From Nannocystales bacterium (GTDB lineage: Bacteria > Myxococcota_A > Polyangia > Nannocystales > Nannocystaceae), in contig JBOEGF010000022.1 in NCBI GenBank assembly GCA_050633305.1, positions 155,107-219,106 of the forward strand: a stretch of DNA of 64,000 nucleotides, written 5' to 3'. The notes under the pieces are model-generated. The model was given only the letters and a program-made list of their open reading frames with translations. It searched no databases and was not told the origin of the DNA. A program made the position numbers and the translations under genes. Positions 45,120 to 63,761 of the stretch are shown one piece after another; position 1 is the first letter of the stretch; every line of letters begins with the position of its first letter.

Positions 45120-45455
45120 ATGGTAGAAGAACGCAGGAATGAACTGCTCGAACTCGCGTCCACAGTTCACGAACTCAGTGGCCGGCTCGACAGCGTTGCA
45201 CGACGATTGGACGGCCTGTCTGGCCTGTTTGGCGATGATGCTGTCGTAAGCGATGACAGTGCACATCGCAATCCGGACGAGGACCATGAGGGGGAGCGGG
45301 GGGGGCGTTGGATTCTCCCGTCGAGTATATCGAGCCGTTTCGCGGGCTCAGTCGCCTGCCTGAAGGGTTCAAAGGGCGCCGTGTTCGAAGAGAACTCTCC
45401 GACGTGGTCGCAGTCGTGGTCCACCAGACGGCGGTTCGTGGCGGATTTGGTGTGA
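45120..45455 (+). CDS. Small coiled-coil ORF, possibly the frameshifted N-terminus of the amidase
   Basis: Heptad pattern 'LLELASTVHELSGRLDSVARRLDGL'; AAGGA upstream; last ~50 codons overlap the amidase ORF out of frame after a G8 run. Confidence 0.45.
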   Translation: MVEERRNELLELASTVHELSGRLDSVARRLDGLSGLFGDDAVVSDDSAHRNPDEDHEGERGGRWILPSSISSRFAGSVACLKGSKGAVFEENSPTWSQSWSTRRRFVADLV

Positions 45456-45916
45456 CACAGTCCGCTGTCCGAAGGTCGGGCAGCGAGACCATGGCCCGGG
45501 TAGGTCGGTATCAGAACACGCCGTATCACGGGATCTACTCGCCTCGGGACCGGGCGTCGATCGTTCAGTGGCCGGTCTGGGTACACAGCTACCACGGCAA
45601 CCGGTCCAACGCGTATTCACTAGGATGGTCGTACGACGGCAAGCTCCCAGGAGACGCCCTCGACGTCGAGCAAGCTCAGCTGTCGCTCGCGCACCTCGTA
45701 TCCGTGGGACGGGAGTTCGGCGCACCGCTTCAATACGTCGAGGCGCATCGTCAGCATTCTGCGCAGCGCGGGGGCGACCCGGGCCAAGCGATCTGGCAGC
45801 GGGTCGTCGTCCCCATGCTCTCCAAGCTCGGGTTGGCCACGCGTCCCGCTCACACGACAGGCGATGGGCTTCCGCTTCCGGATTCGTGGACGGTCGATAC
45901 CCCGAGTGTCTCCTGA
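45308..45916 (+). CDS. Amidase_2 / T7-lysozyme-like N-acetylmuramoyl-L-alanine amidase
   Basis: 'VVVHQTA','PYH','SYHGNRSNAYSLG','EAHRQ......DPG' match the Zn-amidase motif order; no signal peptide. Confidence 0.75.
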   Translation: MDSPVEYIEPFRGLSRLPEGFKGRRVRRELSDVVAVVVHQTAVRGGFGVTQSAVRRSGSETMARVGRYQNTPYHGIYSPRDRASIVQWPVWVHSYHGNRSNAYSLGWSYDGKLPGDALDVEQAQLSLAHLVSVGREFGAPLQYVEAHRQHSAQRGGDPGQAIWQRVVVPMLSKLGLATRPAHTTGDGLPLPDSWTVDTPSVS

Positions 45917-45941
45917 ACGGCGGCGAACGATCGAGTTTACG

Positions 45942-63164: not shown

Positions 63165-63167
63165 TGT

Positions 63168-63761
63168 GTGCTGAAAAGTAACCTTGAAGAGATGGTCTCG
63201 ATTCTGAGCGCGGAGAAAGGGGTGGCGCTGGAGGCTGTCCGGAGCAACCTAGTTCCAGAAGAAGAAATCTATGTCCTGTTGGTCAAGGGGGGGGAACGCT
63301 ATTCGTTCGGAGCTCATGTTAGAGTTCTTCCTGACGGAGGGCTGGAGTGGGCTCGCTGGAATATCGCGCGGCGCGTCTACTCCGCCGGGGAGCGCATCGA
63401 CCTGACGGACCTCGCGGCGAGGGGAGCGGGGAGACTCGACCTCGCCGCTCCCCCTTACTGGGAACGAGGGCTCGGTGTTTTCTACGAGGTGTTTGGTGCC
63501 TTGCAAAGTGACAGCGAAACGTACGGAATGGTCTCCGAAGCGCTGAAGTTCACGCAGGCACCGGCTGACTATCGGCCGGGTATTATGCGGCGTACGCGCC
63601 CCGAACTGAGCCGGAAGGATGCTTACTACTACTCGTTGGCCGCGGAGAGTGAGAGGACTGGAGAAGTTTCGGCCGCGCTCGCCCAGTCCGCCCGCGAGAT
63701 GATCGAGTCCGCAGGGTACGAAGTGGGCGGGATCACGTGGCGAAAGCCACTAGCTAGGTGA
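63168..63761 (+). CDS. Candidate immunity protein
   Basis: GTG 3 nt after the toxin stop; GGAG RBS inside the toxin 3' end; composition like the toxin tip; no recognisable family. Confidence 0.6.
   Translation: MLKSNLEEMVSILSAEKGVALEAVRSNLVPEEEIYVLLVKGGERYSFGAHVRVLPDGGLEWARWNIARRVYSAGERIDLTDLAARGAGRLDLAAPPYWERGLGVFYEVFGALQSDSETYGMVSEALKFTQAPADYRPGIMRRTRPELSRKDAYYYSLAAESERTGEVSAALAQSAREMIESAGYEVGGITWRKPLAR

Follow-up and report, generated by a model that had tools for sequence, protein, structure and literature searches.

Against whom does a myxobacterium direct a Tc (ABC) toxin whose cargo is followed, 3 nt downstream, by what looks like an immunity gene? The locus that raises this question lies in a 64-kb window (the whole stretch of DNA analyzed, 64,000 nt) from an 11.0-Mb genome of ~66% GC that belongs to a Nannocystales bacterium. 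Five ORFs, all on the + strand and separated by gaps of 25, 12, 3 and 3 nt, occupy positions 45308–63761. The contig stops 468 nt beyond the window, after an N gap. We conclude, with a probability of roughly 0.55, that the locus specifies a complete Tc toxin in a polymorphic toxin–immunity layout that serves against other bacteria, the likeliest targets being kin or competitors.

The third ORF (46587..55751, +) encodes a single-chain TcA of 3054 aa. The Pfam models TcA_TcB_BD (E = 2e-96), ABC_toxin_N, Neuraminidase and VRP1 matched it over their cut-offs. Residues 2335–2910 aligned with YenA2 across the linker, channel and TcB-binding domain (E = 4.9e-84), and residues 2339–2752 aligned with TcdA1. 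The fourth ORF (55755..63164, +) encodes a fused TcB-TcC (B-C) protein of 2469 aa. Here, SpvB, TcdB midN, TcdB midC, FG-GAP, RHS and Gln_amidase scored over the Pfam cut-offs, TIGR03696 matched as well, and the alignment with TcdB2-TccC3 had an E-value of 1.6e-220. The shell (SpvB, beta-propeller and RHS core), delimited by Pfam, TIGR03696 and the motif position, covers 55755..62216 (+) and ends with the autocleavage motif PxxxxDxxG at aa 2146–2154. The TcA and B-C reading frames are open across 5,500 codons. Judged by its domains, the motif and the cargo size, the locus is predicted to encode all parts of a Tc (ABC) toxin. The insecticidal Tc toxins (Photorhabdus TcdA1-TcdB2-TccC3, Yersinia YenTc and Xenorhabdus XptA2) have in common with it the TcA channel and TcB-binding domain, the TcB propeller, the RHS cocoon, PxxxxDxxG and a cargo of < 40 kDa. 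In contrast to these, B and C are fused here, the cargo is of the bacterial-conflict type, an immunity-like gene is coupled to it, and relatives carry orphan cassettes.

The original prediction counted five to six co-oriented genes and gave the toxin its own peptidoglycan amidase. The five ORFs and their gaps were exact, but the sixth candidate, ORF 45120–45455, proved to belong to the amidase gene as its 5' piece. The initial 58 aa were 57% identical (E = 3e-17) to the N-terminus of an intact amidase homologue (P0010), which rules it out as a gene of its own, and tblastn with P0010 gave matches in two adjacent frames at the locus. Since the start of this ORF corresponds to the N-terminus otherwise missing relative to the homologues, we conclude that a frameshift divides the amidase gene in two. 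The N-terminal piece (45120..45293, +; the first 58 codons of the ORF) lies in another frame than the catalytic part (45308..45916, +). The break falls between about 45293 and 45311, in a stretch that holds G5 and G8 runs, and it may have arisen by sequencing error, phase variation or decay.

The catalytic part is a probable N-acetylmuramoyl-L-alanine amidase of accessory nature. It had no Pfam match of its own, and homologue P0010 matched Amidase_2 with E = 0.0016, below the cut-off. The 41 database matches, its own record included, contain two named amidase-domain proteins of Enhygromyxa salina. The family has invariant H39, H147 and D157, and many members are about 250 aa long. None of the six same-genus genomes had a homologue, not even the two whose TcA is closest; among the other genomes of the family, 8 of 71 had one (E up to 1e-20). 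The three closest homologues have unrelated genes around them, and the stretches compared contained no TcA match; two metagenome relatives adjoin phage-type genes. In 20 related contig regions, including the two closest orthologous loci, no amidase stood beside TcA. Because the gene is frameshifted here, absent from all same-genus genomes and found in non-Tc contexts elsewhere, we do not regard it as a core part of the machine. The claim that the toxin has an amidase of its own is not supported, and the gene was rejected as a conserved part of the machine.

The next ORF (45942..46574, +) encodes a 210-aa protein of an unnamed family that is an occasional TcA neighbour. It had 27 database matches and no family or structure match; its best hydrophobic 19-mer (1.52) did not indicate a clear membrane segment. 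Profiles of the amidase and the 210-aa protein found no solved structure. A 67% identical 3' remnant of the 210-aa gene is located just upstream of TcA in G003:C108, and by such comparisons this gene appears slightly better linked to TcA than the amidase. The two genes may form a small cassette. A role of the amidase in release is possible by analogy: according to the available text of PMC10847048, T10SS holin/endolysin/spanin cassettes occur in Tc operons, a precedent for a peptidoglycan hydrolase beside Tc genes as a release device. The present locus differs in that the amidase is frameshifted and not conserved beside TcA, and in that no holin or spanin was found at the Tc locus. A search for sigma-70 promoters gave no match, and terminator-like matches were rarer than chance. 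Further upstream in the window, an operon encoding RDD, DUF4129/DUF4350, MoxR AAA and DUF58 proteins (37124–44198) ends ~900 nt before the amidase gene; it is ordinary and had no match beside the other Tc loci compared.

The cargo, or tip, consists of the 315 aa after aa 2154 (62217..63164, +; 32.6 kDa, pI 4.6), with a linker that contains one hydrophobic segment and then a divergent Tox-PL1 domain. The Gln_amidase/Tox-PL1 model (PF15644) matched aa 2347–2441 with E = 2.4e-6 and 27.6–29.1 bits, compared with a cut-off of 24.1. In an alignment with Tox-PL1 domains, C2347, H2425 and D2440 were in place, but other residues stood where the NC-H-DxQ signature has N and Q. At the level of the profile match, the tip agrees with the papain fold originally proposed, as a putative divergent member. 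The PT-TG-like segment proposed with it was not confirmed: the PT-TG model (PF14449) had no match at that segment at E up to 10, nor in a Pfam scan of the tip, and what we found was a hydrophobic 19-mer (tip aa 106–124, mean 1.65). The segment could still be a distant PT-TG relative. A single-sequence structure model of the tip was of low confidence (pLDDT 49.7) and gave no usable fold match. A search of 1.84 billion proteins returned five repeat proteins, and the three examined were unrelated to the tip.

The putative immunity gene (63168..63761, +) encodes 197 aa. Its GC3 is 0.68; that of the whole TcB-TcC gene is 0.80, dropping to 0.61–0.69 in the tip. The protein had one homologue (87% identity) and no family match. 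Searches of genome and metagenome contigs found no relative, the Atlas gave only sub-threshold leads, and there was no significant similarity to any of 48 other downstream candidate partner genes. The gene after a papain-like tip in L089 was suspected to be a homologue, but BLAST, HMM and shuffle tests gave this no support. A two-row structure model (pLDDT 37.2) gave no usable fold match; in this low-confidence model the N-terminal 70 aa resembled a PepSY/Imm35-like fold (best Z 5.0), which we take as a hint only. Typical Tox-PL1 tips of the phylum are followed by an Imm35-like gene in three of the seven best loci (one confirmed by Pfam). Imm35 is the usual Tox-PL1 partner in the phylum, but the 197-aa protein does not belong to it. 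From its position and the family-wide pattern described below, we regard it as a putative immunity protein.

The original prediction also called the RHS core mosaic, and an abrupt change in identity bore this out. In steps of 100 aa up to aa 1600, the B-C protein had 59–87% identity with its orthologues (G004:C12 and G002:C6) and 25–58% with G002:C13. Over aa 1801–2100 it was 93–94% identical to G002:C13 and 54–73% identical to the orthologues. The lineage switch lies near aa 1680–1710; the 3' part of the shell (60850..62216, +) thus appears to be recombinant and to stem from a paralogous Tc lineage. The B-C gene of G002:C13 is 94.6% identical to a second B-C gene of the host genome, which stops on contig C2 at aa 1685 and picks up on C33 at aa 2121. 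The tip linker on C33 is 71% identical to that of G002:C13, and because the B-C gene of the latter is so similar to the one on C2, we assign the C33 tip to C2. The simplest reading is that the two Tc loci of the host recently exchanged sequence and so created a repeat, which the assembly would then have collapsed.

Elsewhere in the host genome (G000), we noted further pieces of this kind. Upstream of the second TcA, G000:C2:14397-16739 (L045) holds a gene for a 627-aa protein of no named family and a podophage fibre gp80-like gene, which possibly are accessory binding parts. Contig C28 carries a B-C fusion with TcA about 6 kb downstream, and C74, a contig that lacks TcA, carries another whose stop is overlapped by a DUF4303 gene. 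The region G000:C18:104900-112741 contains a 184-nt remnant, 85% identical to the B-C gene of the window, by IS-like genes, as well as a separate Rhs gene, which has a weak Ntox21 match and CdiI_N immunity.

Is the coupling of a tip to a small downstream gene peculiar to this locus? TcA was found in 40 of 72 genomes of the family and in 22 of 401 genomes of the phylum. We examined, in part or whole, 59 of the 80 listed TcA matches of the family, chosen for room on the contig. The TcA-linked tips number 33, that is, 32 including C33, whose link to TcA is presumed, plus the tip of L076. By BLAST, no two of them had a common toxin domain, and a few had common linkers. A coupled ORF was defined as one starting with ATG or GTG within −8 to +30 nt of the stop and encoding 80–250 aa. 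Such an ORF followed 29 of the 33 tips (16 overlapping the stop) compared with 55 of 284 control genes (15 overlapping), the control being the host genes of at least 1000 aa; since the loci are related, these counts are not independent events. We judged 25 of the 29 to be convincing and four (G000:C28, G009:C22, L096 and L098) to be doubtful. One of the four tips without a coupled ORF looks truncated, near a contig end. In other families of the Myxococcota, a B-C gene lay downstream of TcA in 10 of 20 stretches, and all six complete first tips had a coupled ORF. For TcA-linked tips of other phyla, mostly actinomycetes, the number was one of eight.

Orphan core-plus-tip cassettes point in the same direction. 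Nine complete ones were found after the main gene in five loci, and seven of these had a coupled ORF. Nearly all tips (31/33) were below 40 kDa, the stated limit of the cocoon. A hydrophobic 19-mer was present in 13 of 33 linkers, in none of 33 C-terminal 110-mers and in 2 of 97 shell windows; 20 of the linkers were without a strongly hydrophobic segment. Orthologous B-C shells were 72% identical, and their tips about 20%. The nearest neighbour by TcA was also the nearest by the TcB N-terminus in 16 of 31 loci, but also the nearest by the RHS core in no more than 5 of 31, which indicates that A and B are inherited jointly while cores and tips are exchanged. Exchangeable tips with adjacent immunity-like genes, as first proposed for the window, therefore hold for the family: all 33 tips differ and 29 are coupled. 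A Tc machine with exchangeable tips and putative cognate immunity genes is well supported at the family level. As far as sequence comparison can tell, the locus is a member of a widespread class of Tc loci in the Myxococcota with this polymorphic toxin–immunity organization.

Some loci departed from this layout. The B-C gene is interrupted in G003:C108 and G009:C22, and TcA is interrupted by an inserted gene in G028:C221. TcA-like proteins of ~4,900 aa, with hemopexin repeats in the one scanned, are encoded in G023:C106, G007:C32, G028:C182 and L104 (G076:C23). They are followed not by B-C but by a poly(A)-polymerase head-domain protein of 853–860 aa, as if they were a second TcA-based system. 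In G029:C14:10000-44931 (L011, L029) and in L097, TcA occurs without B-C in a long co-oriented cluster of mostly unnamed genes. The cluster also encodes a subtilase, a phage tail lysozyme and peptidoglycan-binding and hydrolase-like proteins; wall-degrading genes flank TcA.

Most tips and partners belonged to no family. Those with names included toxin–immunity pairs known from bacterial conflict. In G002:C13, a CdiA_C tip is followed by SitI3, both over cut-off; these are, in the available text of PMC5562445, the families of SitA3/SitI3, a tested tRNase pair in myxobacterial kin killing. L076 combines a Tox-SHH tip (HNH nuclease) with SMI1/KNR4 (SUKH). Ntox28 with HEAT repeats occurred in two different families (L154, over cut-off; L082, tip below cut-off), and C33 paired a weak deaminase match with ankyrin repeats. 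Other tips were a nucleotidyltransferase, Ntox23 and Tox-PL-2, and other partners DUF2247, Imm33-like and weak SMI1. Proteins with DUF2247, ankyrin repeats or HEAT repeats are known to act in immunity to such toxins. After a Tc tip in G028:C178, L004:4111-4443 resembles domain 3 of EF-Tu (E = 0.004 in Pfam and 0.0004 in NCBIfam, below cut-off); it possibly is a decoy-type immunity protein against an EF-Tu-aimed toxin. The same tip and immunity families, namely CdiA_C with SitI3, Ntox28, and HNH with SUKH, are found in the myxobacterial SitAI and CdiA/Rhs systems, as are orphan cassettes. Those systems deliver by outer-membrane exchange or by type V or type VI secretion; here we propose delivery by Tc.

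Do these pairs identify the target? That the cargo is harmful to bacteria is shown by the immunity genes, but this does not make bacteria its target. The toxin could instead be aimed at eukaryotes (amoebae, as grazers or as prey, ciliates, fungi or small animals) through an acidified phagosome or endosome. Its cargo, recruited from bacterial conflict systems, would act on both kingdoms, and the immunity gene would protect only the producer. Cysteine proteases and deamidases are common among the cargoes aimed at eukaryotes, and TcA retains the neuraminidase-like domain and the channel domain known from its insecticidal counterparts. Neither a conserved wall-breaching gene with TcA nor another conserved means of crossing a cell wall was found in the loci compared. 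The literature that we found contains no report of a Tc toxin acting on bacteria, and every characterized Tc toxin described in its available parts acts on eukaryotes. Moreover, the available text on the related teneurin-like system (PMC13018210) states that the shells do not shield the producer; if RHS shells fail in this way, immunity genes are needed whatever the target. What tips the balance to bacterial targets is that orphan cassettes keep their immunity genes (7/9) and that the named families include those of kin killing, as the SitA3/SitI3-type pair (PMC5562445, as far as available) illustrates. Fast tip turnover likewise fits kin attack better, and the TcA-linked tips of other phyla mostly lack a coupled gene (1/8). 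Hence we consider a eukaryotic target, such as protists, combined with self-protection less likely than a bacterial one, yet a serious alternative.

Delivery may also be questioned: the B-C protein might be an antibacterial RHS toxin that reaches bacteria without injection by TcA, as proposed for SpvB-RHS and teneurin-like proteins, or through a T6SS, and TcA would then be a linked carrier, a tether or a second weapon. SpvB/TcdB-TcaC toxins with immunity genes and Tox-PL1 tips are listed without TcA in the available parts of Zhang 2012 (PMC3482391). The host genome has two T6SS TssC genes and, on C74, a B-C fusion whose contig lacks TcA; many TcA genes are without an adjacent B-C, as in 10 of 20 stretches outside the family. 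However, TcA and the TcB N-terminus are co-inherited and their genes lie 3 nt apart here, the TcB-binding and channel regions of TcA are intact, and the cargo sizes suit a Tc cocoon. Nor did Pfam find a PAAR domain in the B-C protein, or a hydropathy scan a hydrophobic signal segment in its first 60 aa (best 19-mer −0.5). Delivery without TcA is improbable in our judgement. Least credible of all is a decaying or misassembled locus with an inactive tip, an unrelated 197-aa gene and an RHS junction that is a chimera of the two Tc loci of the host: the frameshifted amidase, the non-canonical papain signature and the gap in the C2 paralogue (aa 1685 to aa 2121 on C33), which equals the span of lineage likeness as for a collapsed repeat, would fit it. 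Against it speak the uninterrupted reading frames of TcA and B-C (5,500 codons), the presence of C, H and D in the tip and the occurrence elsewhere of a copy of the 197-aa gene with 87% identity. The C33 tip goes with C2 rather than with the locus in the window (linker 71%, B-C 94.6%), and the family-wide pattern is independent of this locus.

We therefore favor a complete Tc toxin used against other bacteria, and its action may be pictured as follows. TcA and the fused TcB-TcC, by homology and co-inheritance, would be co-expressed and assemble like the insecticidal Tc toxins; co-inheritance of A and B is indirect support for a predicted pentameric holotoxin that would inject into target cells. 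The shell, which contains the motif, would self-cleave after PxxxxDxxG and cage the 32.6-kDa tip. To judge from its position, the 197-aa protein would protect the producer and its clone-mates by neutralizing the papain-fold tip. A large complex without a signal peptide would probably be freed by lysis, in which the broken accessory amidase may conceivably once have helped. TcA would punch one target membrane, and the hydrophobic cargo linker might help to cross the next; this is the most speculative step. New tip–immunity cassettes enter by recombination in the RHS shell, as mosaicism and orphan cassettes show.

How does this compare with what is known? Song 2021 (PMC7861908), in the parts available, found neither immunity proteins nor orphan cassettes in 1,608 Tc loci, left B-C fusions out of the survey and cited the absence of immunity genes in support of the view that Tc toxins are eukaryote-directed. 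The TcdB/TcaC (SpvB) polymorphic toxins of Zhang 2012 (PMC3482391) combine SpvB, beta-propeller, RHS and a variable toxin with immunity genes; Tox-PL1 is among their tips and the delta-proteobacteria are listed. In the available text, that class is defined with a signal peptide and regarded as a route of export, and TcA is unmentioned, whereas here TcA is present and hydropathy detected no signal peptide. Bacterial teneurin-like proteins, which the available text of PMC13018210 describes as frequent in Myxococcota, have an RHS/YD shell, a variable toxin and a downstream immunity gene in common with our locus; they differ in their N-terminal fold and in having no known delivery machine, where here TcA is linked. 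A 2026 preprint (10.64898/2026.09.22.753552), in its available part, links an antibacterial DNase, through some of its homologues, to a Tc delivery system. Apart from the partial precedents in Zhang 2012 and this preprint, a full-text literature search, which mostly did not cover subscription journals, found no TcA-linked toxin–immunity class in myxobacteria and no Tc toxin acting on bacteria, in agreement with the original statement that no characterized example was known. SpvB-RHS toxins with immunity genes, without TcA, were thus predicted in 2012; what appears to be new here is the TcA-linked toxin–immunity organization.

Tc toxins have been seen as anti-eukaryote machines, and the named antibacterial pairs and the orphan cassettes challenge that view. 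Even if the target were eukaryotic, the Tc cocoon would leave the producer unprotected and Tc cargo would be drawn from the pool of interbacterial toxins. If TcA can breach the bacterial envelope, this would be a new route of interbacterial delivery, and it would raise new questions of Tc mechanism: the trigger, the receptor and the crossing of two membranes and a wall. For the Myxococcota as a whole we suggest tentatively, at a little under even odds, that the TcA syringe of this class delivers exchangeable antibacterial enzymes (tRNases, DNases, deaminases and proteases) into bacteria. Released from the cell and independent of contact, the injector would then serve predation or the discrimination of kin, possibly reflecting an ancestral use of Tc toxins that preceded their use against insects.
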